From Candidatus Heimdallarchaeota archaeon (GTDB taxonomy: Archaea > Asgardarchaeota > Heimdallarchaeia > Hodarchaeales > Hodarchaeaceae), in contig DXJL01000206.1 in the NCBI GenBank assembly GCA_019057635.1, forward strand, positions 1 through 35,111: DNA of 35,111 nt, written 5' to 3'. Position numbers and translations under genes: made by a program. Shown here piece after piece: positions 149-34,766 of this stretch. Every line of letters begins with the position of its first letter. The first letter of the stretch is position 1. The notes under the pieces were generated by a model. The model ran no database searches. It was not told the origin of the DNA and saw nothing but the letters and a program-made list of their open reading frames with translations.

Positions 149-203
149 GAAATTGTACAATTTCTTTACCTAAATACACATTTTTCTGTTTGTCCGACAA
201 ATT
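149..203. promoter_or_regulatory. Two palindromic candidate operator sites: GAAATTGTACAATTTC (149-164) and GTTTGTCCGACAAATT (188-203)
   Basis: Perfect 16-bp palindrome and a 13-bp palindrome with a 1-nt centre, upstream of the SIS gene. The second recurs at 22060-22075 and 21730-21744. Confidence 0.4.
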
Positions 204-371
204 AAGTCGTACCAACTCCCCTTAGTGCGCCTAAGAAAACTTAAAATCATGAAGCTTAATGGATTTATCCTTAAAGTGCTTGGAAAATATCCAGATTATA
301 TGAAAAAAGAGTTATTAACTGATTATCAATATAAGCGTTTAAAGACCACATGAACTTGGTACAATTGAGGA

Positions 372-20743: not shown

Positions 20744-21643
20744 TTATGTTTGAATTTTTAACGAGAAATCTAAAGATCTTACTGAATGAGTCAAAGCACC
20801 AATTGAAATTATATCTATTCCTTTTATCAAGTATTTCTCGATATTTTCTGTTTTTATTCCTCCACTGATTTCAATAAGGGGTTTCCTCTCAGTAATCCGA
20901 TCATTCATAAAGGAAATTGCTTGTTGAATTTTTTCTGGAGTAAAATTATCAAGCATAATCACATCAGGGTGTAAATTTAGCACATTTTTAAATTCTTCAA
21001 GTGTTTCTACTTCGATATCAATTTTTTTACTGAATGATGATAGCTGTTGATATTTTGTAAGAATTTTTGCAATTGATTCTCCCTCAAATATCGCTAAGTG
21101 GTTTTCTTTTATTAAAATTTCATCAGAGAGACTCCAACGATGTGTGTCGCCGCCACCAACTTTAACTGCATATTTTTCGAAATATCTGAAGCCAGGAGTC
21201 GTTTTACGAGTTGATGCAATTCTTAAGGACGCATCAGAGGTTGCGACCATGTTTACTAGTCGTTTAGTTTGTGTAGTAATACCCGATAATCGCATAATGA
21301 TATTTAATATTGTCCGTTCAACCATGAGTATCATTTTACTACTTCCTCCAATAGTAAGAACGATATCATTCTGAACTACCTGATCTCCGTCATGTTTAAT
21401 TGTTTTTACTTCTAAACCGACGGCTTCTAGCAGAATAAGCGCGAATTCAAGGCCACAAACATATCCTTGTTCTTTTGCAATAAGATTGGCTTGGACAATT
21501 CTATCTGGTGTTATATCAGTGGTAACATCCCCAAATTCAAGATCTTCTTGGAGAAATTGCAGTAATTTTTTTTCTAGTAATTTAGGAGGAAAATACGCCA
21601 AGTTTTTCACCTTTATGAAGCTGATTAGTGCTTTAAAATTCAA
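20744..21643 (-). CDS. nadC: Nicotinate-nucleotide pyrophosphorylase (quinolinate phosphoribosyltransferase)
   Basis: EDLEFGDVTT, ERTILN, STRKTTPG, HRWSLSD..LIKENH, MLDNF, SGGI, GALTHS. Confidence 0.95.
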   Translation of the reverse strand: MNFKALISFIKVKNLAYFPPKLLEKKLLQFLQEDLEFGDVTTDITPDRIVQANLIAKEQGYVCGLEFALILLEAVGLEVKTIKHDGDQVVQNDIVLTIGGSSKMILMVERTILNIIMRLSGITTQTKRLVNMVATSDASLRIASTRKTTPGFRYFEKYAVKVGGGDTHRWSLSDEILIKENHLAIFEGESIAKILTKYQQLSSFSKKIDIEVETLEEFKNVLNLHPDVIMLDNFTPEKIQQAISFMNDRITERKPLIEISGGIKTENIEKYLIKGIDIISIGALTHSVRSLDFSLKIQT

Positions 21644-21721
21644 AAAGGGCTTCTGAATTTATTATGATATAAATTTTCGATTGATTTGTTTTCTAACATT
21701 CACGAGAAATATCAATTGAAG

Positions 21722-21953
21722 CATGACTAAATTTGTCAGACAACGCAGTAAAACCGCGTTCTGGACAGGATGAGTCACACATCCGCTATCCGGAAAAAAC
21801 CAATTCAAATGGTGAATTTGTTTTCGAGGGACTACTTGTTTCTATGGGGTTGGCGTTCTCTCTTGATTCCTCGAATTTCTGAAACCACTGGCCTTACCCC
21901 CCTCGCCTTTGACGGGTAACTCGTCTAACGTAGTTACGAGGAAGGTACTCCAG
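21722..21953 (-). repeat. Copy 1 of a ~230-nt non-coding structured element (inverted relative to 31916-32148)
   Basis: Reverse complement aligns with 31916-32148; about 28 differences in a 220-nt core by hand count, including a 38-nt identical run. Confidence 0.92.
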
Positions 21954-22059
21954 GAGTCTTGAGCTCTATTCTGTTCATCACCTCCAATTCTTGAGGAATT
22001 TAGGGGAGGAGTCCTTTTAAGGTTTTCAGACAGAGAGTGAGGTGAAAATGAGAATATGA

Positions 22060-22075
22060 GTTTGTCGGACAAATT
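22060..22075. promoter_or_regulatory. Palindrome GTTTGTCGGACAAATT, candidate operator between nadC and dph6
   Basis: Identical to 188-203 except for the central base. Confidence 0.4.
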
Positions 22076-22184
22076 TGACCATGTTTTTGTTATCATTGGA
22101 GGAGAAAGGATGATAAACTTTTTATTTAGAGAATTTTTACGAAAATACCAAAGAAATACCAATTTCTAAGCTCGAGGATTTAAA

Positions 22185-22871
22185 TTGAAAGTTTCATGTT
22201 TAATATCAGGAGGGAAAGACTCAGTTTTTGCATTATGGTGCGCCCTTCACCAATTTGAGGTTATTTCGCTTATAAATATTCAAGCTAGAACCTCTGATAG
22301 CTTTCTTTTTCACATCCCGAACACCCAGTACGTATCCTTAATTGCAGAAATGTTGGGTTTACCACTCCTTACAGTAAAAACTGCTTTCTCTAGTGTGAAT
22401 GAAGAAACATCAATGTTAAAGCAAATATTCATTGATTCTGAGGCAGAAGCCATAATTACTGGAGGTATTAGATCAGAATTTCAAAGGTACAAGTTCAATT
22501 ATGCGGCTTTGCAAGCTAATGTGAAGTGTTTTAATCCACTTTGGCGTCTTACACCTAGAACTCTTATGGATGAACTGCTAACAAACCATTTCCATATTAT
22601 TCTTGTTTCTGTTTCTGCAATGGGTTTCGGGAAAGACCTCTTAGGTAAGAAGCTAACGCCTAAGAAATTAAATATGCTTAGGGCCTCAAATACGGTTTCA
22701 GAATTAGCAACGACAGGAGAAGGAGGAGAATATGAATCATTTGTATTGAATGCTCCATTCTTTCCCTCCCGTATTATTGTGGATAAAGCCAAAGTACATT
22801 GGAACGAATTCAGGGAGGAAGGGCACTTCGAGATAATTAAAGCATATTTGGAACTTAAAAGACCTAGATGA
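22185..22871 (+). CDS. dph6: Diphthine--ammonia ligase (diphthamide synthase)
   Basis: PP-loop ISGGKDS, SFLFH, GGIRSEFQ, PLW, GEGGEYESFV. Confidence 0.92.
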   Translation: MKVSCLISGGKDSVFALWCALHQFEVISLINIQARTSDSFLFHIPNTQYVSLIAEMLGLPLLTVKTAFSSVNEETSMLKQIFIDSEAEAIITGGIRSEFQRYKFNYAALQANVKCFNPLWRLTPRTLMDELLTNHFHIILVSVSAMGFGKDLLGKKLTPKKLNMLRASNTVSELATTGEGGEYESFVLNAPFFPSRIIVDKAKVHWNEFREEGHFEIIKAYLELKRPR

Positions 22872-22874
22872 TAA

Positions 22875-23753
22875 CTACAGTGGTTCATAAGTTACCGATA
22901 GGCTTTCTATTGCTAAAATGCTTCCATTATCATTATCAGACAATGTAACAAAAATCAAATAAGGTTCTCCAGGATCAGTCAATTCGGATGAATTCAATTG
23001 GAAAAGATCCCCCTGAAAAGTGATTGATTCGAACCCTTCCAACGTAAAGATATGTGAACTACTGTTGATACTATTCATTATGAAGAATAATCCGCTTGAG
23101 GAAGCTACAGAAAAATCTAACCGCAAATTCATATCCATACTTCCATTATTACTCAAAGAAAAGTTCATCGTTAGTCCTTCCTGACTAAAAACTTGTGATG
23201 GATTTAATGAAACCAGAGTAGTTGGCCCATAGGTGTCTCCAATGGTTAACACATCAGAGCTGAATGTTTTTGCGGATCTAGAGCTAGTTTTTCCTTGCGG
23301 AAACACAGTAACTTCAATAAAAATTGTGTCATTCCCAGGAATTAATTCATTCTGATCGATCGTGTTATCGCATGTAAGAGGAATTGTTTCAATGGCTAAA
23401 CCTGGCAAGAGAATTTTCGATTGATCCATATACCAACCTAGAATTGGGGTTCTATTGAAATAAAAAAGCGAAAATGCATCAGCAGATATTTCAACGTTTG
23501 TTCTTTCGGTATTCTGTAAAGTTATATCAAATCTATCAACTTTGATATCACTATCAGTGGTTTCAAAAGAAGAGACGGCTATAACTTCAACACCTAAAGG
23601 ATCAGGAGCATTAATGGTACCAAACATCACTAAGGCAACTCCTAATCCAGCAACTACTACAAGTCCAATTAAAAGAACAGTGGCAATTACAGGACTAATT
23701 CCTCTTTTTGTTTTTTTAGTAATAAGCCAATTCTTCATTGTTTCACATCTCAC
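22875..23753 (-). CDS. Archaeal type IV pilin/archaellin-like surface protein (class III signal peptide)
   Basis: KKTKRG|ISPVIATVLLIGLVVV prepilin motif, beta-rich ectodomain, 7 N-x-S/T sequons. Confidence 0.85.
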   Translation of the reverse strand: MRCETMKNWLITKKTKRGISPVIATVLLIGLVVVAGLGVALVMFGTINAPDPLGVEVIAVSSFETTDSDIKVDRFDITLQNTERTNVEISADAFSLFYFNRTPILGWYMDQSKILLPGLAIETIPLTCDNTIDQNELIPGNDTIFIEVTVFPQGKTSSRSAKTFSSDVLTIGDTYGPTTLVSLNPSQVFSQEGLTMNFSLSNNGSMDMNLRLDFSVASSSGLFFIMNSINSSSHIFTLEGFESITFQGDLFQLNSSELTDPGEPYLIFVTLSDNDNGSILAIESLSVTYEPL

Positions 23754-24034
23754 ATCTTTTTTTAAATAGGGGTGATATTTACATAAAGGGAGAAATTAGT
23801 AAAGGAAATTCAACGAAATTGAAAATCAATCGTATTATGATCTTTGTCCAAGTCTTCTCTTTTTTATCTTTCCTAACAAACATAAATCCTGATTCTGATT
23901 TTTCTCCTTCAATTTTCGTAAGTTCATTTTTTAGTCTGTTATTACTGGAATAATTTTAAGATTCGCTCATTTTCCTTATCGATAGTAAAATAATTGAACC
24001 GGAACATCAATAAAGTTATCAGCGCAAAGCTTTT

Positions 24035-24101
24035 CTGCTAAGCCGGACGGTAATCAGCTTCATCGCAACGGGAAGGCCTCTGCTGACCGATACATTAGCA
24101 G
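24035..24101. other. GC-rich nested stem-loop of unknown function in intergenic DNA
   Basis: CTGCTAA/TTAGCAG outer helix, CGG-(TAA)-TCAGC/GCTGACCG inner helix, further CTTC/GAAG potential. Confidence 0.4.
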
Positions 24102-24131
24102 TCTTTATTGAAAAGATCCTCTAGTCTTGTT

Positions 24132-25970
24132 TTACCATCGTGAAAAACCAATTCCACAAGTTTCCGATATAAGTAACAAGAATAAAGCAATTTCCTCCAT
24201 TTCTTGATTTGATTCTGATGCAACAAACACAACTCCTTCTCCCTGATATAATGGTTGCATAATCATTGATAGTATTGCATCTAACGTTTTACCCAGAGTC
24301 CACAAAGCTTCTGTTTCAATTTGCTCACGAATTTCTTTTTCATAAATGAAAGTCTTAAATTTTGACGGAATTTTTTCCTTAATAAAATCACGATTGGGAG
24401 GAATTACCAAAATGGCTCCTTCTCTTGGTATGTTAAATCTTGAAGATAGTGTTTTAATATTCAGTTCTACTTGAGTAAGATATTCTACGATGCTTAGCCA
24501 TAATATTCCCCGTAAAGCAATTTTTTCATTTTCAGAAGAAACCCCTAAAGACACTGAACGTTCGTTGATTTCTAGGCTTCCTTCAACCCTTGCTGCTAAG
24601 TCTTTTAACGAATCATTTATGCTTTCGAGTCTTGGTCCATATGTAGAGATATGATATTCAAAGCGATCACGCTTGCGGAACAAACTAACTGTAATGTTTG
24701 ATTCACTAGAAGGTACAACGCTTGTTGGTGAGAGTTCAAGGGCCATGGGTGATGTATCTAGAACTACTGGAATGTCAGCGAAATTGTATTGTAAACCGCT
24801 CTCTCTGTTTTTCTGTAGTTTGGCTTTAAGTCCGGGACTTAAGGCCTCTATCGTGATAGAGCGTTTAATAACAGGTTTAACTATCGGTTGTTTTGTTGGA
24901 ATTGCATCTGGCTCAGAATCTAGTTCAATAATAGGTGGTGGTGTGGTTTCTTCAATCGCTGGAGTACCAATTGATGAGGATTGTGTCTGTAACTTATCTC
25001 TTCCAACAACTAGTTCTTGAAGTTCGGGAGGTTCCGTAGTTTCTATTTCTATTGATGGAGGAGTAAGTTCTCGCATCTTATACATGACTGGAGCTGACAT
25101 TGTTACTACAATGTCTTTTCCAGGTTGTATTACTGTTGATAGTAATACATTGTTTCTGAGATAATTATCCTCACTTGAGGGAAACAGTGCCATGGATTGA
25201 GCTATCTCTCGGGCATCCTCATTATCAATGAATTTTCTCATTTTTGCTGTATTGGTGTTCTCACCAAAAATTCTGCTAAGGACGTCATAAACATGCTCTC
25301 CTGCATTTGCAGAAAAATACTGTTTGAGAGGTGATTCCAAACCGAAAATCAATATATTATCATTTTCCTCAACTCCAGGTATAGGAGTAAACGACAGAAC
25401 TCGCGAAGTCTTGGAAGCATCTATAATGGATAAAAGATCGCTTGTGTCATTTGGGTCGATGAAAACCAGTCTGGACACGACACTCTCAACCCCATATCTC
25501 AGATCATGAGCAAAAGCTGTAAGTAATACCAAAGCAGAAAGCATGCCATCTGGTGTTCGAGGAATGACATATATAGAATTTGCAGGAGATGTCAATAATT
25601 GATAAAAGGTATCTAACTGTCTATTTTGAGCATCTAAGACATTTCCTTCCAGAAATTGTTCTACCAATTTTAATACAATTCCCATGGTAGGTACTACTTG
25701 ACGAGCACTTTTCTCTATAGGGATCAGCACAATTGCTACAAGATCGTCAGTTCTTCTTACCTGTGGGAATAAAAATACCATCCGATGATTGGCAAATCTA
25801 ATAAAGTGAATTCTTTCACCTCCCATAATCTTCTTTGAAAAAAGGGTGAGAACTTGGGTAACTGTTGCACTGATTTTTGAGTGTCGAGATAAAAGACCTT
25901 TACCGGAGCTAAAAATTACTCTATTTTGGTGAACGACAAGGAGATCGGTAGAACCCATTTGTGTATCCAT
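24132..25970 (-). CDS. Large hypothetical protein with N-terminal longin-like (uDENN-like) domain, alpha/beta middle, P/E/T-rich linker and C-terminal globular region
   Basis: beta-beta-alpha-beta-beta-beta-alpha pattern (LLVVH..RVIF..VLTLFSKKIMGGERIHFIRFANHRMVF..LVAIVLI..LKLVEQF); fold call is inference. Confidence 0.5.
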   Translation of the reverse strand: MDTQMGSTDLLVVHQNRVIFSSGKGLLSRHSKISATVTQVLTLFSKKIMGGERIHFIRFANHRMVFLFPQVRRTDDLVAIVLIPIEKSARQVVPTMGIVLKLVEQFLEGNVLDAQNRQLDTFYQLLTSPANSIYVIPRTPDGMLSALVLLTAFAHDLRYGVESVVSRLVFIDPNDTSDLLSIIDASKTSRVLSFTPIPGVEENDNILIFGLESPLKQYFSANAGEHVYDVLSRIFGENTNTAKMRKFIDNEDAREIAQSMALFPSSEDNYLRNNVLLSTVIQPGKDIVVTMSAPVMYKMRELTPPSIEIETTEPPELQELVVGRDKLQTQSSSIGTPAIEETTPPPIIELDSEPDAIPTKQPIVKPVIKRSITIEALSPGLKAKLQKNRESGLQYNFADIPVVLDTSPMALELSPTSVVPSSESNITVSLFRKRDRFEYHISTYGPRLESINDSLKDLAARVEGSLEINERSVSLGVSSENEKIALRGILWLSIVEYLTQVELNIKTLSSRFNIPREGAILVIPPNRDFIKEKIPSKFKTFIYEKEIREQIETEALWTLGKTLDAILSMIMQPLYQGEGVVFVASESNQEMEEIALFLLLISETCGIGFSRW

Positions 25971-26012
25971 GGTAATTCATTGGAATATTCTATAAGCTTG
26001 CTTATTAAGGTT

Positions 26013-26642
26013 TCAGGATCTAAAATTTGAAAGCTTAAAATCACCTTTTCGTAGGATTATTGGATCATCAGGGGACGTTATATCAATAATAGTTGAAGGT
26101 GATCTTTGTGGTAAAATACCTTGATCAATCCACAAATTTACGCCTCTTGTTGAAAGATCATTAAATACTTCAGAAAAATTTATACTTGGTTCGTGACCTG
26201 AGGTATTTGCTGAAGTACCGACAATTGGAGCCTCTATATTTCGTATAATACTTAGTAGAATATCATGTGCTGGTACACGACATGCAATAGTATTGTTACC
26301 AGATGTGTTTAAGTATGGAGATAGTTCTTTCAGGCCAGACATTTTCCAATTCACAATAAACGTAATTGAAGCAGGCCAGATATCTCTAAGACGATTGATA
26401 ACGCTGTCAGGAGCCTCTATATATTGACATATCATATCTAAGGTTATTAATACACTTAATGGCTTTTCAAAAGACCTTTTCTTAATTTTAAAGATCTTCT
26501 GTACATTTTTGTTGTTTTGTTTTGTGGCAATAGTTCCTAATCCATAAACTGTATCAGTAGGAAATACAGCAATATCCCCTCTCCTCATTAATAAAGCAGC
26601 TTTACTTACTATTTCAGGATCACTAGTATCAATAATTATCAA
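26013..26642 (-). CDS. tsaC: L-threonylcarbamoyladenylate synthase (TsaC/YrdC; no SUA5 C-terminal domain)
   Basis: FPTDTVYGL, KIKKR..KPL, IACRVP, GTSANTSG, PSTIID, LRKG. Confidence 0.92.
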   Translation of the reverse strand: MIIIDTSDPEIVSKAALLMRRGDIAVFPTDTVYGLGTIATKQNNKNVQKIFKIKKRSFEKPLSVLITLDMICQYIEAPDSVINRLRDIWPASITFIVNWKMSGLKELSPYLNTSGNNTIACRVPAHDILLSIIRNIEAPIVGTSANTSGHEPSINFSEVFNDLSTRGVNLWIDQGILPQRSPSTIIDITSPDDPIILRKGDFKLSNFRS

Positions 26643-26717
26643 GCGAATTCCTCTCTCAAAATTTTCATATGAGGAATTTAAAAATTCGTAATGAAAATTA
26701 GTAATATATTCTTTCAG

Positions 26718-27470
26718 TTATTGCTGTTGTTTCATCATGTGAATAATGATTTCTCTTACGAGGCTTTCTACTGGTTTTATCACGCGATTTACGCTTGTAG
26801 GTCTATATTCTTTTTTCAACCTACCATTTTCATTTACTATTTTACTCCGATCACTACTGGAAAGGAGTAGTTTCAAATCGTCACGTGCCTTCAGGCATGA
26901 AACTTCAATAATTCTGACCGCTGCATCTCTTAAACTGGTCACTGCACCAGATTCACTCAACAATTTTCCCACTTCAAATGAAGAAATGCGTTGTTCAACG
27001 GGGAGGTCCATTTTGTTTAGCATAATATGATATGGTAAAGAGCCGCTCGCTAGTTTATCTCCAACAAGGTCATTAATTTCTCGAAGTGCAAATTTATTTT
27101 CCTCCCATCTAGATTTTTCAGAATCAACAACACAAATTAATCCATGGGCTCCTCTTAAGACAACTTTCCTCTGTCCTGAGTGACGTTCCTGACCAGGCAC
27201 AGTAAATAAATGATATTTTAAAATAGGGAGACCTGCACTCGTTCTACCAATTCCAAAAATACCCTGATCAAAGAAAAGAGTGCGTCCTGTTGGATCTTCC
27301 AATTTTAAGAATTTATAGACATTTTCTGGATCTTCAAGGCTTTTTAACACCTTTGTTATTGTTAAAGCTGTGGTTTTCCCTGCTAGAGTAGGTCCCCAAA
27401 ATACAATTTTAACTACAGGGATTCCTTGGTGATCTCTTTTTATTGTTTCAAAGGTAGATTGTGCCTGCAT
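26718..27470 (-). CDS. MglA-like small GTPase
   Basis: KIVFWGPTLAGKTT, GRTLFFD (MglA switch I with intrinsic Arg), TVPGQ G3, VLRGAHGLICVVDS, NKMD; start moved to the ATG at 27470. Confidence 0.88.
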   Translation of the reverse strand: MQAQSTFETIKRDHQGIPVVKIVFWGPTLAGKTTALTITKVLKSLEDPENVYKFLKLEDPTGRTLFFDQGIFGIGRTSAGLPILKYHLFTVPGQERHSGQRKVVLRGAHGLICVVDSEKSRWEENKFALREINDLVGDKLASGSLPYHIMLNKMDLPVEQRISSFEVGKLLSESGAVTSLRDAAVRIIEVSCLKARDDLKLLLSSSDRSKIVNENGRLKKEYRPTSVNRVIKPVESLVREIIIHMMKQQQ

Positions 27471-27531
27471 GGTAAACACCTTGTTATGGATAGGGATGGA
27501 TGTGTGTATGCAAAAGAGCTTTTTCAAATTA

Positions 27532-28092
27532 TTAAGATATATTATCTTTCTCTATAACTTGTTTTGCTAAGCTATGGAAAATTTCAGTAATTTCGGAACC
27601 CCCCTCTTTTGCTGAGGTTTCATAATATGACATATTTAGTTCATCAGCAACTTTTCGGGCATCTTTTTCAGATACTACTCTTTCATCAACGAGATCGTTT
27701 TTATTTCCAGCTAAAGCAATGGGAACAGTTGGTGGGATGTACTTAGTAAATTCGGTTAACCATTTCGGAATCGCCTCGAAAGACTTTTCATCAGTAAGTG
27801 CAAACATAATCAAGCAAGCTGTAGCTCCTCGGTAATAGCTCGGTCTTAATTTGCCAAAGAACTCCTGTCCAGCAGTGTCTACTAAGATTAATTTAACTTG
27901 ACTGTTATTAACCTCAATCTTCTTTGTTGTAATGTCAACACCTAGCGTTGGTAAATAATTGGTTTCGAATTTGTTCTCTGCAAATCTACGGATGAGGGAT
28001 GTTTTTCCTACACTCCCAGATCCAATTGCACAAATTTTGAGTAAGTATTCATTAGTATTTGTCAAAGATGAAACTCCTATTAATACTGTCAT
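27532..28092 (-). CDS. Rab-like small GTPase
   Basis: GSGSVGKT, YLPTLGVD, DTAGQE, YYRGA, GNKND, ETSAK; no C-terminal Cys. Confidence 0.93.
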   Translation of the reverse strand: MTVLIGVSSLTNTNEYLLKICAIGSGSVGKTSLIRRFAENKFETNYLPTLGVDITTKKIEVNNSQVKLILVDTAGQEFFGKLRPSYYRGATACLIMFALTDEKSFEAIPKWLTEFTKYIPPTVPIALAGNKNDLVDERVVSEKDARKVADELNMSYYETSAKEGGSEITEIFHSLAKQVIEKDNIS

Positions 28093-29000
28093 AAACCCAT
28101 TTTTGAAAGATCTTGTAGTGATTGTCGCATATCGTCAATAAATTCGTCTCGTTCGGAACGTGTTTTTTCCCTCAACATATCAACAAAGAGAACCTGTCCA
28201 TTTTCAATATACAGACGAACCTCATAATGAGAAGCGGGGAATATGCCCCCAGGTAAATCATCCATCGGTTCTAACTTTACAACATCCTTAGAAAAGAGCT
28301 GTAAATGCTCTTTAATGACCGAAAATACGGTATTTCCAATAATAACAATTTCTCTTGTCAAATGTGAAGGAATCGTTAATTCTTTTAATTTTTCAGCTAC
28401 AACACTAAGGGGAGTGGAGGTCGTTGCTTCGACTTGACGTGTAACAACAACTTCTGTTTCCTTCACTACTCTAGGTTTTGAAACATGAGAAGGTGTTGGT
28501 GCACTACTTGGCTTGGATGTGGGAGCAGTTGAGGGTGTTGGAGTAGGTCGTGTTGGAAGTGTTGGTTCCGGAGCAGATCGTGCTCTTGGTGCGGCAGATG
28601 GAGCAGTACGAGTAGTTGAAACAGAAGTTTGAGAAGGAGCAGTTGTGGGACGTGAAACAACCTGAGATTCAGCCTTATCTGCGTCTGAAGAAATAGTTTT
28701 TGGTGATATTTCACCAAAAATTGCAAGAAAATCCTTCCCCTCTATTCCAGGGTCGAGACTATCAATACGGTAAACCATTCCATATTGTTCTTGTCGCATT
28801 TGCTGTGCAGCCTTGGCCGATATGAATTTTCTTCTCACTGGGGCCTCTTCCCCCTTCCAGATAAAAATCTTTCTTACTCCTTCATCTACAACAATATAAA
28901 CTGCATCATTTTGTAGTCCTTCAAGGGAAGACACATCACAAGGAGTTAGAGTTCCATCGTCGTTTACTGTAAACTTTTTAATAACATCAGAGTTGCTCAC
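28089..29000 (-). CDS. Single-domain gelsolin/villin-like protein with P/T/S-rich linker and C-terminal domain (Asgard 1DGelX-like)
   Basis: LQNDAVYIVVD..KIFIWKGEEA..RKFISAKAA..GIEGKDFLAIFG gelsolin repeat; ~90-aa PTS linker; C-terminal REIVIIG...LPGGIF...RLYIENG domain. Confidence 0.8.
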   Translation of the reverse strand: MSNSDVIKKFTVNDDGTLTPCDVSSLEGLQNDAVYIVVDEGVRKIFIWKGEEAPVRRKFISAKAAQQMRQEQYGMVYRIDSLDPGIEGKDFLAIFGEISPKTISSDADKAESQVVSRPTTAPSQTSVSTTRTAPSAAPRARSAPEPTLPTRPTPTPSTAPTSKPSSAPTPSHVSKPRVVKETEVVVTRQVEATTSTPLSVVAEKLKELTIPSHLTREIVIIGNTVFSVIKEHLQLFSKDVVKLEPMDDLPGGIFPASHYEVRLYIENGQVLFVDMLREKTRSERDEFIDDMRQSLQDLSKMGL

Positions 29001-29221
29001 AGGTTATCATCACACAGGGTCAAGTGTAAAATCATGAGTATTGGGCGATTTTCGCGGATTTTCTATATGTAAATGATATCAATACCACTTTTTAAAATCC
29101 ACTTAATAAATGAGTCATTAAAGGTTATGACATTCTTTCATAAATTTCTTTCTTTTCAACAAACATTTCTTATTAGATATATTTTTTGTTTAGTAGAGAT
29201 TTTGTTTTTAATTGTATAAAA

Positions 29222-30037
29222 ATGAAGATTGATAATTGGATTGAGAGAGGATTAGATTCATTAAGCTCAGGTGATTTTTTCGATGGGATGCAGCTGATTG
29301 AAGGAGCGATAAGACGAGTATTTAGATCAGATCATCCTGATACAGCTTTGAGAATATTTAAAAGGACTAGTGAGATTTTAATTCCAGAAGGACTTGAAGA
29401 TTTATATTGCCAATTCATTTTAGGGACTATTCCTCTTTTCAAAAAGAAAGTCGGGAATATTGATTGGTTTGATCTTATCCCTGAATTATTGGTCATTTTA
29501 AGAGAAAACAACATACCTTTGTGCATTCCCAAGTTTATTAACAAAATGATTTTGGAAACGAAAATTGCTCAGGAGGATTTTATTCAAACAATGATGTTAA
29601 ATGTTGCTAAAAGAAAATATTCCAAAAAAGTTTTGGCAGATCTGTACTATTATCATGCTGGATTATTTGTTTCGAAACAGGAATATGTAAAGTGCTTTAA
29701 TGTTCTGAAAGAGTGGAATGACTTAATAGCTTCTTCTCCACGAGTATTAACATATTTAACATTAGCTGAGTTAAATGCTTATGAAATTGAAGGTTGTGGT
29801 AAGTATCTAGAAGTAGCCAAATCGCTCCCTGATACCTCTCCGTATATTGAACTAGCGAGTCACCTCTACAAATCAGTTGAAACAGGTAATTATGATTTAT
29901 ACTCATCAATTATTGTTGAATATACTGATATAGTCAATGCTAAACATGATGTATTACTCAAAGGTTTATGTGATGGAATATCCGATTTCTTAAAACCAAA
30001 AGGGAATAAAGGACTTTTCTCATTATTTGGAGGTTGA
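29222..30037 (+). CDS. Alpha-helical solenoid protein, probable Get4/TRC35 homolog
   Basis: N-terminal SLSSGDFFDGMQL and C-terminal SPYIEL...VETGNYDLY...Y...D...DGISDFLKPK..GLFSLFGG match the recalled Get4 pattern; start moved to the ATG at 29222. Confidence 0.6.
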   Translation: MKIDNWIERGLDSLSSGDFFDGMQLIEGAIRRVFRSDHPDTALRIFKRTSEILIPEGLEDLYCQFILGTIPLFKKKVGNIDWFDLIPELLVILRENNIPLCIPKFINKMILETKIAQEDFIQTMMLNVAKRKYSKKVLADLYYYHAGLFVSKQEYVKCFNVLKEWNDLIASSPRVLTYLTLAELNAYEIEGCGKYLEVAKSLPDTSPYIELASHLYKSVETGNYDLYSSIIVEYTDIVNAKHDVLLKGLCDGISDFLKPKGNKGLFSLFGG

Positions 30038-30547
30038 AATTACTTCAATTATCTTTTTTACAGCTTCTATTCCCGTTTCAGCATGATAAATTTGTTCTGA
30101 AACAGGAGGGTTTTGTAATGATCCCCGTTCGCCAATTTCCTGACTCCACCCAGGGATTGATGTGATACAAACTATTGGTCGATCGTAAAGAGCTGCATAT
30201 GCTAATTCTGAAAGGGTACCGATATTTCCACCACAAGCAATGACACCCTCTGATGCGAGGACAACGAGAGGATTTCGTCCCCAATGTAAAAAAGTAGGAA
30301 TTCTCACAGTTAAATAAGGAGATAATTCTTCATCTTCCACTCCTGCGGGAAGAATTCCAATCGATATACCTTTGGCATCGTATGCTCCTTTTGTAGCCGC
30401 TAACATCACTCCTCCTCTTCCACCACATATCAAAATTGAGCCAGAATGGGCAATTTCTTGACCAATTTCATATGCAATCTTGTATTGTAAGTCTGATCGT
30501 ATTTGTGAATCCCCAATAACTCCAATCTGCAATTTTCTCTTATTCAT
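30023..30547 (-). CDS. LOG/Rossmann-fold nucleotide-binding protein (TIGR00725-like)
   Basis: IGVIG, ICGGRGGVM, SIGILP, RNPLVV, GGNIGTLSEL; probable start is the ATG at 30547. Confidence 0.88.
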   Translation of the reverse strand: MNKRKLQIGVIGDSQIRSDLQYKIAYEIGQEIAHSGSILICGGRGGVMLAATKGAYDAKGISIGILPAGVEDEELSPYLTVRIPTFLHWGRNPLVVLASEGVIACGGNIGTLSELAYAALYDRPIVCITSIPGWSQEIGERGSLQNPPVSEQIYHAETGIEAVKKIIEVISTSK

Positions 30548-31109
30548 ACAATTCACTTTCATCAAAATAGGTCTTTTTTCCTTCTACTGAGGGTTTAATT
30601 TTTTTCTTAGAATTCGAAAAATTTATTTCCAACGAGTTTGGAATTAATTTCTCAAGAAATATAGCTAAGGAACCAACTTCAGAGTGTGGTTGATTTGTAA
30701 CGGCAATATTCCAATCTGCATAATGAAATACCTTTGCAGGTACTTTTTCTCCTCCTACAATTACTAGAAGTTGTTTTAATGCTTCTCTAGAAGATTGTAA
30801 CATTTTAAATTGTTCATTAGATTGAAAATCTTGTATGTTTTCGCCATACATTGTGAGATGTACTATTTTTCCCTTTTTTTGTTTCCAGTCCTCTAAGAAT
30901 TGAGTCCAATCTTCATAAGGGAGAAATTCAATTGAAAAATCTCCTCCCCACTCCGAAACTACTTTAAAAACTGATTTGATAATGTTTTCATCAGTTTCCC
31001 CCGCAATTCTAATACCTGCGGATCCAAAAGCACGAGCTACTAAGGCCAAATGAGTAGTAACTCGTTTATCACGAAAAATACGATGACCAAGTCGAAACAC
31101 TGTTACCAA
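30540..31109 (-). CDS. trm56: tRNA (cytidine(56)-2'-O)-methyltransferase (SPOUT, archaeal)
   Basis: RLGHRIFRDKRVTTHLALVARAFG, HLTMYG, VGGEKVP, NIAVTNQPHSEV. Confidence 0.95.
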   Translation of the reverse strand: MVTVFRLGHRIFRDKRVTTHLALVARAFGSAGIRIAGETDENIIKSVFKVVSEWGGDFSIEFLPYEDWTQFLEDWKQKKGKIVHLTMYGENIQDFQSNEQFKMLQSSREALKQLLVIVGGEKVPAKVFHYADWNIAVTNQPHSEVGSLAIFLEKLIPNSLEINFSNSKKKIKPSVEGKKTYFDESELYE

Positions 31110-31132
31110 GTAGTGTTCACTCTTTCTATGAA

Positions 31133-31711
31133 TTATCTCTTTAGGTGGTTACGAATCGTATGAGCAAGAGTATTAAATGATTCGTCAACGTTTTCACCAG
31201 TTTTTGCTGAAGTTTCAAGATAGGGAACTTTAAATCTTATATCATACTGACCCTTAATTTCCTCAATATAAGCTTGGACGTCTTCTGGTGTGACAGGATC
31301 ATCAACCTCATTACGAAGATCCACTTTATTTCCTAAAATGGTTATTGGCATTATACCTCTTCCTGAATTGCGATAGAGTTCTTCTATCCAAGAAGACAGA
31401 TTCGTAAAGGAATCACGTCTAGTAATATCAAAGACTAGAAGTCCACCATGCGACCCTTTGTAATATAATTCTCGAACACTATTAAAACGAGGTTGTCCAG
31501 CCAAATCCCAAATTTGGAACTTAACGCTTTTTTTTCCTTCTTCAGTAGAGATTTGGGTCTTCTTAACAGCAAAATCTGCGCCAATGGTCATCACATAACC
31601 ACTCGAGAATTGTTTCCCAAGATATCGTTCACGTAAAGCTGTTTTTCCGACTGCACCATCGCCTAATAGACAAACTTTCATCAATAACAATTTACAGGCT
31701 CCTATCTGCAA
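31133..31711 (-). CDS. Rab-like small GTPase
   Basis: GDGAVGKT, YVMTIGADF, IWDLAGQ, YYKGS, GNKVD, ETSAKTG; no CAAX. Confidence 0.93.
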   Translation of the reverse strand: MQIGACKLLLMKVCLLGDGAVGKTALRERYLGKQFSSGYVMTIGADFAVKKTQISTEEGKKSVKFQIWDLAGQPRFNSVRELYYKGSHGGLLVFDITRRDSFTNLSSWIEELYRNSGRGIMPITILGNKVDLRNEVDDPVTPEDVQAYIEEIKGQYDIRFKVPYLETSAKTGENVDESFNTLAHTIRNHLKR

Positions 31712-31915
31712 AACAATAGATTAAATCTGAATAGATATTGGGTATGAGATGAAGAACTAGATATAATTACGCCATAAATAGCCATTTTTTTAAAGAATTC
31801 GATATCCAATATTAATGGAATTAGCAGTGGAATTTCGTAGAATTGCATTATATTGGTTAACTAAATTAATGATTTATAAATTTCTGATTGTTTGGATCGA
31901 GAATTATAAGCGTTT

Positions 31916-32148
31916 CTGGAATAACTCACTCGTAACTATATTAGACGAGTTACCAGTCAAAAGCGAAGGGGGTAAGGCCAGTGGTTTTTGAAATTCGTGG
32001 AATCAAGCGAGAATGCCAACCCTATAGTAACAAGTAGTCCCTCGAAAATTAATTTTTCAGTTGAATCGTTTTTTTCCAGAATAGCGGGCATGTGACTCAT
32101 CCTGTCCAGAACGCGGTTTTACTGCGTTATCTGACAAATATAGCCATG
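31916..32148 (+). repeat. Copy 2 of the ~230-nt non-coding structured element
   Basis: Aligns with the reverse complement of 21722-21953; a TTTATAAA box lies at 31873-31880 just upstream. Confidence 0.92.
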
Positions 32149-32474
32149 AGTAGATGAATACTTCTTTCTATATAATAATAGAAAAGCAGAGAAGAGATTT
32201 TTGATTTGAATGAGCAATTAATTGATTTTACTTATTAGTAAAGATAACCCTGTAATAGTCGATTCTAGTTGAATACAAAAATAAAAAAGGTTTTGATTTT
32301 ATTTTCTATTTACTTCATTATGATATCTAAAAGAAAATAGGTTGAGAATCACTTTTAAGATTCTGATAGAGATTATTGATCACTCTCCTACGAATGTGTA
32401 TTATAATACAGTTACAAGCTTTATAGTTCATGATTCTCATAAAATACAGATATTGAGTAAGATAGGTAATAATT

Positions 32475-34766
32475 ATGGTCGGATTGAAAATTTCATCATC
32501 TGAGTTGAAAGATATTATCGACATCCTCGGATTATCTGAGGATGAACAGGGTGTTGTATATATAAACTTGCTATCATTGGGTATGGCGACTCTAGGACAG
32601 TTAAGTCTTGTCTCTGGCATTGATTTCATCCAAACCCAAGAGGTTTTGAATGTACTCATAGGTAGTAACTTGGTAAAACGCATACCTGGGAAAGTTGGAC
32701 GCTATATAGCTCTTCAACCCTTCTTAAAAGCATTTTTTCTATCTTATGACCCAATAACTCTCATTAATATCAGGAAAGAATCAAAGGACGCTTTTGAAAA
32801 GAGTACAGAATTCCTTCAAAATATTTTTAATCAAACAAGTGAGAAATTTAAAGAACATACTTCATCCTTAACCCAGGATTTTTCAGAAAACCTAGAACCA
32901 ATAACTGAAGGTTTTTCGACGATCTCAACTGACCAAAGAAATCTTGTCACGTCAATTAATGAGGCTATTCAATCGGATATTCAATTTGTAAATGATCAGA
33001 TACAAACTATTATTAAAAAAGCCTCGGAATTGTACAACCAAATCAATGATGAAAATATTGAAGAAATCGAAAAGCTTCCTGAGTTATTTAATAATATTCC
33101 AACAATAAAGAACCAGCTCCAGAATGTTCAACAGCAGATTTCCTCTAGTTTTGAGGAAATACGAGCAGGACAGGTCGAGAAAGCTGATGTAATTAACAAG
33201 GCTTTTGGGGAGGAAATTGTACGACATATGAACGAAAATCATCGTATCATGGAAAATTTTAATTCTAACCTAGCCAAGAATCGTGAAAGTATTGAAGAAT
33301 TTACGTATGAGACTAAGAACAAGCTAGAATTAATTAGGAATAATGCGAAGGCTACTCAACCCAAATTTCAAGAATTCCGTTCTAGTTATCATGATATTGA
33401 AGAGAACCTTCAAACCTTATTCTCATCAATCCCCCTCAAATTAAACAACATAGAAAATGTGATTTCAGACCTAACGTCAGAAATAAAAAATCGAAAAATG
33501 TTTAGAGGAAAAGAAGAGTTTATTGATCAACTTAAATTAGTACAAGAAGAGAAATTAGCTATCTCTCAACTTATTTCCTCTTCTATGGGTAAAGCTGATC
33601 TATTAAATAAACTTAATCAAGATTTGGCTGAAATTGAGGATAAAATTGTACATGCTACAGATGTGGGTATTGACTCAACAATTAGTGTGTTTGAAGAAAG
33701 AAGAAAATTGTTTCGAGAGCAATTAAATAACATAGAAAACGAATTTAACCTTAATTTAGGTAAAGAAGTTAATGATTCTTTGTTAACCATAAAACAGGGA
33801 CTTAATGATCAAATAATGACTTTAAAAACTGATTCAGACAACTTATTCAGAAAATTAATACAGGAACTAAAATCAGAATTAGAAAATTCTACGAAAATAT
33901 TTTCAGAGGTAATCTTGAAATCTATTAACGAGTTCAAACAAAATTTCAAAGTGAATCTTGAAGTAAGTAAGACTAAAGTTATCGAAGAGAGTGAACTAGT
34001 CCAAAAAATTGCAAATATCGGTGAATTAAGCAATCAGGTAAAAATGAATCTCAATAATGCCTCTAAGAGTATAATAGATCTTGATACATCATTAAGTTCA
34101 TATTTTTCAGGGTTAACGAATTTTACTTCCAACTATGCTGATGAACAGCTCAATACGTTCGTTTCCAACTTGAATGATTCAAAAATGAGAATCGATGAAT
34201 TTCTTGAGCAGACAGAGAGACAACTTGAACACGAAGTCTCTGCTTTGATCTTTACTATCAAGGAAATGAAACAGAAATTGAGCAAAGTAACAAACGTGAT
34301 GAGTTCTGTTGAATTAAGTGAACTAGATCCCTCATTACTGGACACCGATCTTGTGATTGGAGAGCCAGTTATTATTTTGCTCCTTCGAGACTTAACTGTA
34401 AGGACAAAATCGTCTCTAACTATACTTATGCCTCGTCCTGAATTACAAACTTTAATAGCTGCCTCTAAATTGCCGTTTAAGACTCGTGTAACTATTATTG
34501 GGGATTTCCTTAAAGTACCTAAAACCACTCTAAAAAAAGTTACATCTTCCTCCAATATTCGCTTAAAACAACTTGATGGTATTGAATTTTGGGGGTGTAT
34601 TCGAGATGCAGAAGAACTTCTGATTTGCCCTGAACCAATAAATCCAGAAAAAGAAGAATTAGTTGGAGTAATCACAACAAATGGAAATCTAGTTGACTTA
34701 TTCACACAAGAAATTATTACCTATACTACTAGAAGCAGGGAAATTCTCCCTTCTGATTTAGAATAA
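32475..34766 (+). CDS. TrmB-like wHTH protein with ~500-aa coiled-coil insert and C-terminal TrmB/PLD-like domain
   Basis: LGLSEDEQGVVYINLLSLG.AT.GQLS..SGI..L..L..LV.RIPG..RY.A.P N-terminus; long heptad region; C-terminal RTKSSLTILMP...FWGCIRDAEELLICP. Confidence 0.75.
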   Translation: MVGLKISSSELKDIIDILGLSEDEQGVVYINLLSLGMATLGQLSLVSGIDFIQTQEVLNVLIGSNLVKRIPGKVGRYIALQPFLKAFFLSYDPITLINIRKESKDAFEKSTEFLQNIFNQTSEKFKEHTSSLTQDFSENLEPITEGFSTISTDQRNLVTSINEAIQSDIQFVNDQIQTIIKKASELYNQINDENIEEIEKLPELFNNIPTIKNQLQNVQQQISSSFEEIRAGQVEKADVINKAFGEEIVRHMNENHRIMENFNSNLAKNRESIEEFTYETKNKLELIRNNAKATQPKFQEFRSSYHDIEENLQTLFSSIPLKLNNIENVISDLTSEIKNRKMFRGKEEFIDQLKLVQEEKLAISQLISSSMGKADLLNKLNQDLAEIEDKIVHATDVGIDSTISVFEERRKLFREQLNNIENEFNLNLGKEVNDSLLTIKQGLNDQIMTLKTDSDNLFRKLIQELKSELENSTKIFSEVILKSINEFKQNFKVNLEVSKTKVIEESELVQKIANIGELSNQVKMNLNNASKSIIDLDTSLSSYFSGLTNFTSNYADEQLNTFVSNLNDSKMRIDEFLEQTERQLEHEVSALIFTIKEMKQKLSKVTNVMSSVELSELDPSLLDTDLVIGEPVIILLLRDLTVRTKSSLTILMPRPELQTLIAASKLPFKTRVTIIGDFLKVPKTTLKKVTSSSNIRLKQLDGIEFWGCIRDAEELLICPEPINPEKEELVGVITTNGNLVDLFTQEIITYTTRSREILPSDLE

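Follow-up and report, generated by a model that had tools for sequence, protein, structure and literature searches.

Repeats in a Hodarchaeales archaeon are probably gene-less derivatives of a tnpB-only insertion sequence that keep its omega-RNA region

Results

Two copies of a repeat in the window

The analyzed sequence, referred to here as the window, is a stretch of 35,111 nt (contig DXJL01000206.1, assembly GCA_019057635.1) from Candidatus Heimdallarchaeota archaeon. It contains two similar stretches in opposite orientations, copy 1 (21722-21953, minus strand) and copy 2 (31916-32148, plus strand). BLAST and alignment gave 86% identity across ~233 nt, and a preliminary description had counted ~87% by hand. 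Both copies are intergenic and, as had been described, GC-richer than their surroundings: G+C was 0.466 in the right part of copy 1 and 0.411 in copy 2, whereas the four flanks had 0.25-0.34 and the window as a whole 0.354. The gene nadC (quinolinate phosphoribosyltransferase; 20744-21643, minus strand) starts 78 nt downstream of the end of copy 1, and a gene for a TrmB HTH protein of 763 aa lies 326 nt downstream of the end of copy 2, in agreement with the estimates of ~80 and ~330 nt. Neighboring genes were annotated solely at these two copies.

A 106-aa reading frame across copy 1 matched no Pfam family. The search of the whole window against Rfam at the gathering score found a tRNA and nothing on the repeats, and copy 2 at E ≤ 10 gave just two chance matches to snoRNAs (E 0.43 and 7). 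The preliminary description had likewise recognized no Rfam family.

The ~230-nt unit first described is a real repeat, but it corresponds to the right two-thirds of a gene-less transposon of ~360 bp. Copy 1 extends ~130 nt further to the left, reaching 22079/22083, where its left end is a mirror image of the right one. According to the end-to-end alignment with 18 other ~360-bp copies and to an empty site in metagenome run X4, it is a complete gene-less element of 358 nt (21722-22079, minus strand) whose right end closes with CATG at 21725-21722. The CATG adjoining its left end (22080-22083, minus strand) represents the target, or transposon-adjacent, motif or else one half of a 4-bp duplication. 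On the same strand, the element carries a near-terminal palindrome at the left end (22059-22079), a TATA-like box from the tnpB leader (22013-22020), a 5′ block made of a 40-nt piece of tnpB with the codons just past the RuvC-I motif GIDLG (21901-21940), and a 3′ domain homologous to the tnpB 3′ end and right end (21722-21838), the predicted omega-RNA scaffold. This domain includes a long imperfect right-end hairpin with a covarying apical stem (21722-21780). By analogy with TnpB omega RNAs (PMC10691335), the flank directly past the right end (21702-21721, minus strand) would be the guide segment; conservation among copies breaks off at the right-end CATG.

Copy 2 is a 5′-truncated element (31914-32148, plus strand) that runs from the 5′ block (31929-31969) through the right end. 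Its upstream sequence showed no left end (local alignment score of 16, shuffle mean of 16.8), and a similar match of equal extent is present in the relative G002. The 3′ domain (32031-32148) is again predicted, from homology and covariation, to be an omega-RNA scaffold, and the same analogy would place the guide segment at 32149-32168. A short solo remnant of the same family, similar to the right end, was found by motif scan and sequence at 190-213 (plus strand) and was missed by nhmmer.

Copy number, distribution, and empty sites

The search for further copies proposed in the preliminary description returned 45 BLAST and 53 nhmmer matches within the 3.19-Mb genome, which places the repeat far beyond chance. 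The whole ~235-nt unit was spanned by 20 of the 53 nhmmer matches, and 18 of these 20 share the ~130-nt left part. The gene-less element measured 355-365 bp (14 copies). There are ~20 separate loci, with mutually unrelated flanks. A very short form with only the termini also seems to be present (G000 C104:~23040-23082). The family was present in seven of 21 further genomes from the genus and in none of 19 genomes from other genera of the class; the parent element has so far been seen only in Hodarchaeales-type Asgard archaea.

In a contig of metagenome run X4, position 21721 is joined to 22080, so that exactly the 358 nt of copy 1 are skipped, with the placement of the junction ambiguous by four letters (CATG). 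The flanks of this contig have three mismatches in 308 nt relative to the window, and the empty site holds a single CATG. The site upstream of nadC was also empty in G020, and in G002 it was filled by a copy of another subfamily that points the opposite way. A site on contig C13 of G000 was empty and its counterpart in G002 filled. The copies have no conserved ORF; they are too short for a transposase and contain only relic fragments of TnpB with stops. Multiple copies, insertion polymorphism, and precise empty sites, as expected of a non-autonomous element, were all found.

The tnpB-bearing parent element

The parent is a tnpB-only insertion sequence of 1.43 kb with the same ends as the ~360-bp copies. 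Both termini and the leader are common to full tnpB elements and gene-less copies of the same genome. In the nhmmer search, a copy of the 3′ half lay directly downstream, on the same strand, of 10 of the 16 matches to the TnpB zinc ribbon (PF07282). The tnpB frame stops 18 nt short of the common right end, and the mini element is homologous over its final ~125 nt to the 3′ end of tnpB together with the right end.

The parent protein (423 aa) reached 235 bits with the NCBIfam model guided_TnpB (cut-off 100), and it also matched PF07282, PF01385, and solved TnpB and Cas12f chains. RuvC motifs are visible by eye in TnpB; the identity of the catalytic residues among them is our assumption. Intact TnpB is encoded in the same genome by open frames of 425-431 aa on contigs C133, C152, and C72. 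Pieces of the gene-less copies aligned in tblastn to TnpB residues 209-222 and 384/391-423. A CTTAWAAG block, conserved in the gene-less copies, lies ~30 nt upstream of the tnpB ATG in the full copies; this TATA-like box may act as an archaeal promoter. The 40-nt block from the tnpB interior was retained in every gene-less copy, with at least 90% conservation in 29 of 41 columns (28 copies), and within tnpB it is frozen at synonymous sites.

The preliminary description had noted a loose resemblance to omega RNAs linked to IS200/IS605. HEARO, the omega RNA of IscB, is the guide RNA of such a linked nuclease. The hint at an omega RNA is borne out by the homology to the tnpB 3′ end and right end. 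The repeats differ from HEARO in that Rfam gave no such match (copy 2 at E ≤ 10, the window at the gathering score) and in that the adjoining nuclease family is TnpB, not IscB. The suggestion of a non-autonomous mobile element was upheld by the ends, leader, and last ~125 nt in common with tnpB insertion sequences and by the polymorphism in relatives and metagenomes. The proposal of a candidate new RNA family was not: the repeats are copies of a tnpB-derived transposon, and gene-less omega-RNA elements as a kind are already known (PMC10055086; PMC10691335).

Ends of the element and search for a transposase

We compiled a table of 28 left and 48 right ends. One end and the reverse complement of the other agree at 18 of 21 positions, and a TTGTCnGACAA core lies 10-12 nt from each terminus; the inverted match owes partly to this common palindrome and to CATG. 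Empty sites have one CATG and filled sites two. This pattern fits either an adjacent motif that is identical to the four bases with which the element ends or a duplication of 4 bp (or 2 bp).

Inspection of the flanks, also proposed earlier, revealed CATG on both sides and parents with tnpB. No cognate tnpA was found in the 22 genomes of the genus. The Y1 transposase TnpA (PF01797) was not found in G000, a 91.6% complete genome. It was detected in two of the 22 genomes (incomplete assemblies), both times in an unrelated element without the ends of the family. Because these 22 genomes held no cognate Y1 transposase, a place for the family in the classical IS200/IS605 scheme of transposition is putative at best.

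The inverted ends, the one-versus-two CATG pattern, and the lack of a Y1 transposase linked to the family would also agree with a true inverted-repeat MITE. Some other transposase would move it as double-stranded DNA and duplicate CATG or only the AT at its center; the conserved hairpins would then bind proteins or act at the DNA level, and any activity as omega RNA would be a leftover. TnpB elements with symmetrical ends that are moved by an IS630-type DDE enzyme have been described (PMC10691335). We regard this explanation as possible but rather unlikely. The genome yielded neither a DDE_3 nor a mariner-type transposase, although the mariner control was silent everywhere and makes the mariner result a weak blank, and no DDE transposase adjoined any copy. 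Every terminus of the left-end type is followed by tnpB or by nothing, and the repeated elements recovered in a self-BLAST of the genome were just the tnpB-only and IS607-like ones. The flanks show a non-palindromic preference (A before the left CATG in 15 of 28 ends, A after the right CATG in 25 of 48), which suggests strand-specific targeting. Moreover, the "inverted repeat" is mostly a palindrome present at both ends, like that described for IS605-type elements and PATEs (PMC3119063).

Fold of the right-end domain

Of the helices drawn in the preliminary description, counted here on 28 copies, only the hairpin just before the right terminus had good support from covariation: it was paired in 95% of the cells, and five of its seven pairs had changed on both sides. 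The 5′ hairpin was paired in 94% of the cells with zero double changes. The long-range closing helix (73% and 65% of the cells) and the middle helices (35-65%, holding in one subfamily only) were less consistently paired. The middle 60-100 nt of the ~235-nt unit differ between subfamilies, and the helices there are not conserved.

A 31-pair model was then evaluated on the last 128 nt of 45 sequences (28 gene-less and 17 full copies). The structure was paired in 92.8% of the cells, compared with 80.6% in shuffles (0 of 500 reached 92.8%) and 33-46% when it was slid along the alignment. In this test of covariation on further copies, as had been recommended, 15 of the 31 pairs had changed on both sides, and compensatory changes were numerous in gene-less and full copies alike. 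G-U pairs were numerous on the tnpB strand, which is the strand that the preliminary description had taken as sense from a single G-U pair. The tnpB codons under the internal hairpin vary at first, second, and third positions, which shows that the fold and not the protein is conserved there. Single sequences did not fold with unusual energy (sense strand, z = -1.70 and -1.00; antisense strand, z = -0.49). For a candidate pseudoknot between guide-proximal nucleotides and the 5′ part of the scaffold, of the type usual in TnpB and Cas12 guide RNAs, the partner segments are invariant and covariation is therefore uninformative; a mutual-information scan gave nested pairs only. That no Rfam model matched is compatible with a lineage-specific omega RNA, and it is not positive evidence for one. 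A search of RNA runs found the locus in none of them.

The fold could instead serve excision and integration as single-stranded DNA, in the manner of the IS200/IS605 sub-terminal hairpins, in which case the gene-less copies would have no functional guide RNA. The best covarying hairpin and the palindrome are indeed at the right end, the place at which DNA hairpins are recognized by the transposases of IS200/IS605 (PMC10055086). We consider this doubtful: the covarying internal hairpin and its closing pairs (helices 1-2) sit 70-100 nt inside the end of the element, probably past what a transposase would need, the gene-less copies retain the leader with the TATA-like box, and the domain agrees in size and position with the 116-nt scaffold of ISDra2 (PMC10097598).

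A new cis-regulatory RNA (a riboswitch-like leader) or a housekeeping small-RNA family, to which the orientation of each window copy toward a downstream gene and the lack of an Rfam match had pointed, can practically be dismissed, given the unrelated flanks of the ~20 loci, the empty site upstream of nadC in a near-identical strain (X4) and in G020, the reversed copy of a different subfamily there in G002, and the transposon ends and tnpB-bearing parent of the copies.

Discussion

The homology to the parent element, the copy number, the exact boundaries, the insertion polymorphism, and the covarying fold of the tnpB strand were observed directly. We consider it probable that the repeats derive from a tnpB-only insertion sequence, as non-autonomous elements (PATE- or MITE-like) that have no gene but have kept the omega-RNA region. 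The preliminary description was partly confirmed in its observations and partly supported in its interpretation.

The closest parallels are the PATEs and core-deleted IS1341-type elements described in haloarchaea, which are also gene-less, multi-copy, and internally deleted forms of tnpB-only IS605-type elements (Dyall-Smith et al. 2011, PMC3119063). They share with the Hodarchaeales elements a near-terminal palindrome that is the same at both ends, a short target oligonucleotide, strain-specific insertions despite no intact Y1 transposase on hand, and apparently a very short form with only the termini. As defined in that description, PATEs lack inverted terminal repeats, whereas the ends studied here agree in inverted orientation and depart from the definition on this point. 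PATEs also insert beside a 4-6-nt targeting sequence with no target duplication; the one CATG of empty sites and two of filled sites seen here would fit such a mode or a duplication. Unlike the PATEs described there, the CATG target is a palindrome identical to the element's final four bases, and the host is an Asgard archaeon. The IS630-linked TnpB elements (PMC10691335) resemble ours in TnpB as cargo, symmetrical ends, and a short palindromic target, and differ in their DDE transposase.

Standalone or PATE-like elements with only an omega RNA (PMC10691335; PMC10055086) have neither effector nor transposase, keep the right-end scaffold, and coexist with effector-bearing copies in the genome, as here. 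The present elements, whose omega RNA is predicted, also retain 40 nt of the tnpB interior that are not known from any described omega RNA. In ISDra2 of Deinococcus radiodurans, the reRNA scaffold overlaps the tnpB 3′ end, where the encoded C-terminal tail is poorly conserved, and stops at the transposon boundary, as predicted for our elements; it measures 116 nt, compared with ~117-125 nt here, and both have a multi-stem fold (PMC10097598). There is no detectable similarity between the two scaffold sequences, the proteins are distantly related (E 7e-11), and the adjacent motif is TTGAT in ISDra2 (PMC10097598) and putatively CATG here. The block frozen at synonymous sites, the ends similar to inverted repeats, and the palindromic CATG target are unusual traits of the element.

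We propose that internal deletions removed most of tnpB from an ancestor, which retained the left end (including the leader of tnpB and the TATA-like box), the mid-tnpB 40-nt piece, and the last ~125 nt, the stretch that TnpB elements transcribe as the scaffold of their omega RNA. Each copy would be transcribed on the tnpB strand, and intact TnpB proteins made from other loci of the genome may bind its RNA in trans. It is common for PATEs to encode omega RNAs, on which TnpB would act in trans (PMC10055086), and standalone omega RNAs function in trans with compatible effectors (PMC10691335). The guide of a TnpB omega RNA adjoins the transposon end, outside the element (PMC10691335); by analogy, the guide here would be taken from the flanking DNA just past the right end. 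CATG could be the target-adjacent motif of TnpB, and the identity of the enzyme that moves the element rests on inference. The TnpB-RNA complex would cut the matching empty site, made of CATG and the flank, and repair from the filled chromosome may then favor the retention of the copies.

The repeated element and its boundaries

The preliminary description had put the identity of the two repeats in the window at about 87% by hand count; BLAST and alignment gave 86% over about 233 nt. The higher GC content described for both copies was also found, with a G+C of 0.47 in the right part of copy 1 and 0.41 in copy 2 versus 0.25-0.34 in their flanks (0.354 for the window). The downstream neighbors are the genes already named: 78 nt separate the end of copy 1 from the quinolinate phosphoribosyltransferase gene (nadC), and 326 nt separate the end of copy 2 from a gene whose 763-aa product has a TrmB-type HTH. 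This last gene (32475-34766, plus strand) has the TrmB HTH at its N-terminus and a long region weakly similar, below the cut-off, to apolipoprotein-type helical repeats. Copy 2 is also adjoined by a gene for a 192-aa small GTPase of the Ras/Roc/Arf type (31133-31711, minus strand); such genes are typical of Asgard archaea.

The search for further copies in the genome that holds the window (3.19 Mb, 214 contigs, 91.6% complete), as had been proposed, revealed 45 matches by BLAST and 53 by iterated nhmmer. Twenty of the 53 span the whole ~230-nt unit first described, about 18 cover its last ~120 nt alone, and 8 its first ~70 nt alone. Two of the 20, on contig C182 and at the start of contig C133, are flanked by the same sequence, perhaps because a single locus was assembled twice. 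Toward the left, 18 of the 20 copies have a further ~130 nt in common, so that the ~230-nt unit is a real repeat but a truncated one; the element itself is 355-365 bp long in the 14 copies in which a simple pattern found both ends. The left terminus is a mirror image of the right at 18 of 21 positions, and at both ends a terminal CATG lies about 10-12 nt from the palindrome core TTGTCnGACAA. Copy 1 is a complete element (21722-22079, minus strand, with CATG at 22080-22083). No left end was detectable upstream of copy 2, which starts inside the element. At 190-213 (plus strand) lies a short solo remnant, made up of the palindrome core and a degenerate terminus, that is similar to the right end found in a sister subtype of this TnpB element.

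The comparison with Rfam, the check proposed for known families, returned no relevant family: at the gathering score the whole window gave only a tRNA located elsewhere, and at E ≤ 10 copy 2 gave only two chance snoRNA matches (E 0.43 and 7).

Relationship to a tnpB-only insertion sequence

In the same genome, 10 of the 16 matches to the TnpB zinc ribbon (PF07282) lie directly upstream, and on the same strand, of a copy that consists of the 3′ half only. These parent loci are 1.43-kb elements with the same two termini and a single gene. The 423-aa product, of which an intact example is encoded at C133:54340-55611, scored 235 bits against the NCBIfam model guided_TnpB (cut-off 100), contains PF01385 and PF07282, and also matches solved TnpB and Cas12f chains. 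Open frames of 425-431 aa are present on contigs C133, C152, and C72, and the remaining copies are broken. The tnpB frame stops 18 nt short of the right end.

By tblastn, the gene-less element corresponds to TnpB residues 384/391-423, which form the tail, and residues 209-222, which lie just after the GIDLG motif of RuvC-I. A leader with a TATA-like box is common to the parent and the gene-less copies. These tblastn pieces, with the leader and termini in common, show the small element to be a derivative of the 1.43-kb insertion sequence produced by several deletions.

A second, unrelated tnpB-only family of about 1.66 kb, with a 439-aa frame, has at least three copies in this genome (C104:14208-15871, C139:3638-5298, and C152:3625-5286).

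Fold of the 3′ domain

RNAalifold analysis of 28 gene-less copies predicted a helix enclosing the 5′ block and a long imperfect hairpin, formed by the right terminus and an upstream conserved segment and capped by a short stem. A further hairpin was present in the last 128 nt of 45 sequences (28 gene-less and 17 full) and in 85 distinct 3′ domains (50 gene-less and 35 full); two covarying pairs close this hairpin, whose sequence is wholly different from one subfamily to the next. When the 31-pair structure was scored on the 45 sequences, 92.8% of the cells were paired, versus 80.6% in shuffled alignments (0 of 500 reached the value) and 33-46% with the partners slid. Fifteen of the 31 pairs had changed on both sides, and 54 further pair types were counted, with 44.3 expected (0 of 500). 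Several paired positions are G-U in most sequences, which argues that the tnpB strand is the one that folds. In the full elements all three codon positions vary in the variable hairpin (about 0.4), which indicates that the fold, rather than the protein tail, is what is kept.

Of the helices in the preliminary description, the apical hairpin at the right end was strongly supported across the 28 copies, but the closing and middle helices were not conserved; the 5′ hairpin is paired, though without double changes. The folding energies of single sequences were unremarkable (z of -1.7, -1.0, and -0.5). In ISDra2, a 116-nt scaffold is described that overlaps the poorly conserved, disordered C-terminal tail of TnpB (PMC10097598), and the Hodarchaeales 3′ domain fits this picture of a scaffold overlapping the TnpB tail.

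Mobility and target site

A contig from X4, one of four marine-sediment and cold-seep metagenome runs (X1-X4), joins position 21721 of the window to 22080. Exactly 358 nt are skipped, the four letters CATG fit either side of the junction, and the flanks have 3 mismatches to the window in 308 nt. The copy 1 site is also empty in G020, the genome of a relative. In a second relative, G002, the flanks are 94-95% identical and the same CATG upstream of nadC is occupied by a member of a different subfamily, 69% identical and in the opposite orientation (locus L062 on G002:C8, ~1160-1525, versus window 21722-22083). This occupant, together with the empty site of the near-identical metagenome strain, suggests that one target site has been used more than once, independently.

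Other comparisons between G002 and the genome of the window (G000) gave a site filled on G002:C82 whose matching place on G000 contig C13 is a single CATG, one site filled in both genomes, one with a 45-nt remnant, another with degenerate ends, and an 850-nt indel whose start coincides exactly with a right end. The 850-nt difference (locus L057, G002:C30, 1501-2353, versus G000 C133:18020-18030) runs from the right-end CATG of a gene-less copy to the start codon of the gene that follows, and may reflect either a deletion next to the copy or an insertion that brought cargo.

An A precedes the left CATG in 15 of 28 distinct left ends and follows the right CATG in 25 of 48 distinct right ends, and over these ends the preference in flanking bases is not palindromic. 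The CATG may be an adjacent motif equal to the last four bases of the element or a 4-bp (or 2-bp) duplication, and both fit the data. As an adjacent motif, the palindromic CATG would permit insertion in either orientation at one site. A very short, terminal-only form on G000 C104 (~23040-23082), apparently of the same family, recalls the 52-bp core-deleted palindrome-associated transposable elements (PATEs) of Haloquadratum.

Distribution of the family

Within the genus, the family was found in 7 of the other 21 genomes; elsewhere in the class, 19 genomes of other genera had none. An exact 20-nt word from the right end occurred in 42 stretches of a collection of 185,579 species, all of them in MAGs titled Candidatus Hodarchaeota or Candidatus Heimdallarchaeota B3_Heim. 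A metagenome scan retained 80 loci encoding TnpB relatives, five of them close (57-77% identity); the rest were at most 39% identical, and nearly all at most 35%. The five close loci have the tnpB-only layout as far as their contigs reach: all five contain the internal block, L127 has the left terminus, and L128-L130 have the right-end domain. Contig depth over the 40-nt block and the right-end block, the two most conserved blocks (summed over window 21751-21791 and 21915-21955), stood at 50-80 times the flank value in X1 and at roughly 5-75 times that value in X2-X4, so the family is abundant in these communities.

A conserved 40-nt block inside tnpB

Every full copy has, in the middle of tnpB and about 480 nt upstream of the 3′ domain, a counterpart of the first ~70 nt of the unit described initially. 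Within these ~70 nt lies a 40-nt block (window 21901-21940 in copy 1 and 31929-31969 in copy 2) that covers tnpB codons 217-228 in the RuvC-I coding region (for example, G000 C133:54925-54994). Diversity at third codon positions, computed from 11 full copies of several genomes, was 0.11 over these codons versus about 0.5 along the gene; the only other region to fall in this way is the last 20 codons (0.13-0.18). In the gene-less copies the block is the best-conserved part apart from the right end, with 29 of 41 columns at least 90% conserved, and it is near-constant in every gene-less subfamily while the surrounding sequence diverges. In the full elements the block has a GTCAGAC core, like the GTCnGAC of both end palindromes.

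Such a block may serve as the 5′ half of a bipartite guide RNA, or as an RNA switch in competition with the right-end hairpin. Duplex energies between the block and the 3′ domain were no better than those of shuffled blocks (mean z -0.8; 5 of 50 below -2). A candidate 5-bp pairing of the block with a conserved single-stranded segment was discarded, as by eye its variants do not keep the pairing. Alternatively, the block could be a third recognition site for the transposition machinery that moves the family. We regard it as improbable, on present evidence, that the family both has a second cis-acting module not described before and moves without a classical TnpA.

Search for a mobilizing enzyme

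No Y1 TnpA, the HUH transposase of IS200/IS605, was found in G000; 2 of 22 genomes of the genus have one, in an unrelated element without the ends of the family. The IS607-type elements of G000 (C54:5735-7584 and C56:27184-29285), in which a serine-recombinase TnpA gene overlaps tnpB, have ends unrelated to those of the family. One IS607-type element has a tnpB-only partner on contig C163. Homologues of Asgard Cas1 scored above the cut-off in 3 of 22 genomes, unlinked to the family. The DDE_3 transposase had no match in G000; neither did the mariner type, a weak blank since the control was also silent. Self-BLAST of G000 returned, beside paralogous host genes, only the two tnpB-only families and the IS607-like repeats. 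Among the metagenome TnpB relatives, 1 of 80 loci had a Y1 gene nearby in a tblastn search of low sensitivity. Thus, in the genomes searched, all of them incomplete MAGs, no Y1, serine, Cas1, or DDE enzyme was linked to the family. According to PMC3119063, Haloquadratum shows strain-specific insertions although its IS200-type transposases are pseudogenes; it poses the same puzzle as the Hodarchaeales family, insertions without an evident transposase.

Identity and significance of the element

Of the readings first offered, a mobile element is retained, now with a predicted omega (guide) RNA, and a new RNA family or riboswitch is not. PATEs are described as gene-less derivatives of IS605-type or IS1341 (tnpB-only) elements with near-terminal palindromes (PMC3119063). 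Meers et al. report that PATEs often encode omega RNAs, on which TnpB proteins from elsewhere would act in trans (PMC10055086), and Altae-Tran et al. describe mobilized standalone omega RNAs that work in trans (PMC10691335). As judged from its sequence, the Hodarchaeales element fits this kind, already documented, of gene-less TnpB derivative with a predicted guide-RNA scaffold. Its ends read as inverted repeats, which the strict definition of PATEs does not allow. In the papers searched, we found no description of the Hodarchaeales family.

The supposed "new RNA family" can thus be struck off as false. To the initial account it adds a natural empty-site allele, one site used in both orientations, the distribution of the family, and the synonymous-site freeze of the block. 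Two puzzles stand out: what moves a family without a linked transposase, and what role the frozen 40-nt block plays in tnpB. A compact predicted guide-RNA scaffold is now represented by about 85 distinct natural sequences, with intact TnpB partners of 423-431 aa, and could be tested as an editing system. The boundaries, the CATG target, and the subfamilies are fixed for an element in an Asgard lineage close to eukaryotes, and TnpB biology in this lineage is relevant to how the eukaryotic Fanzor nucleases arose.
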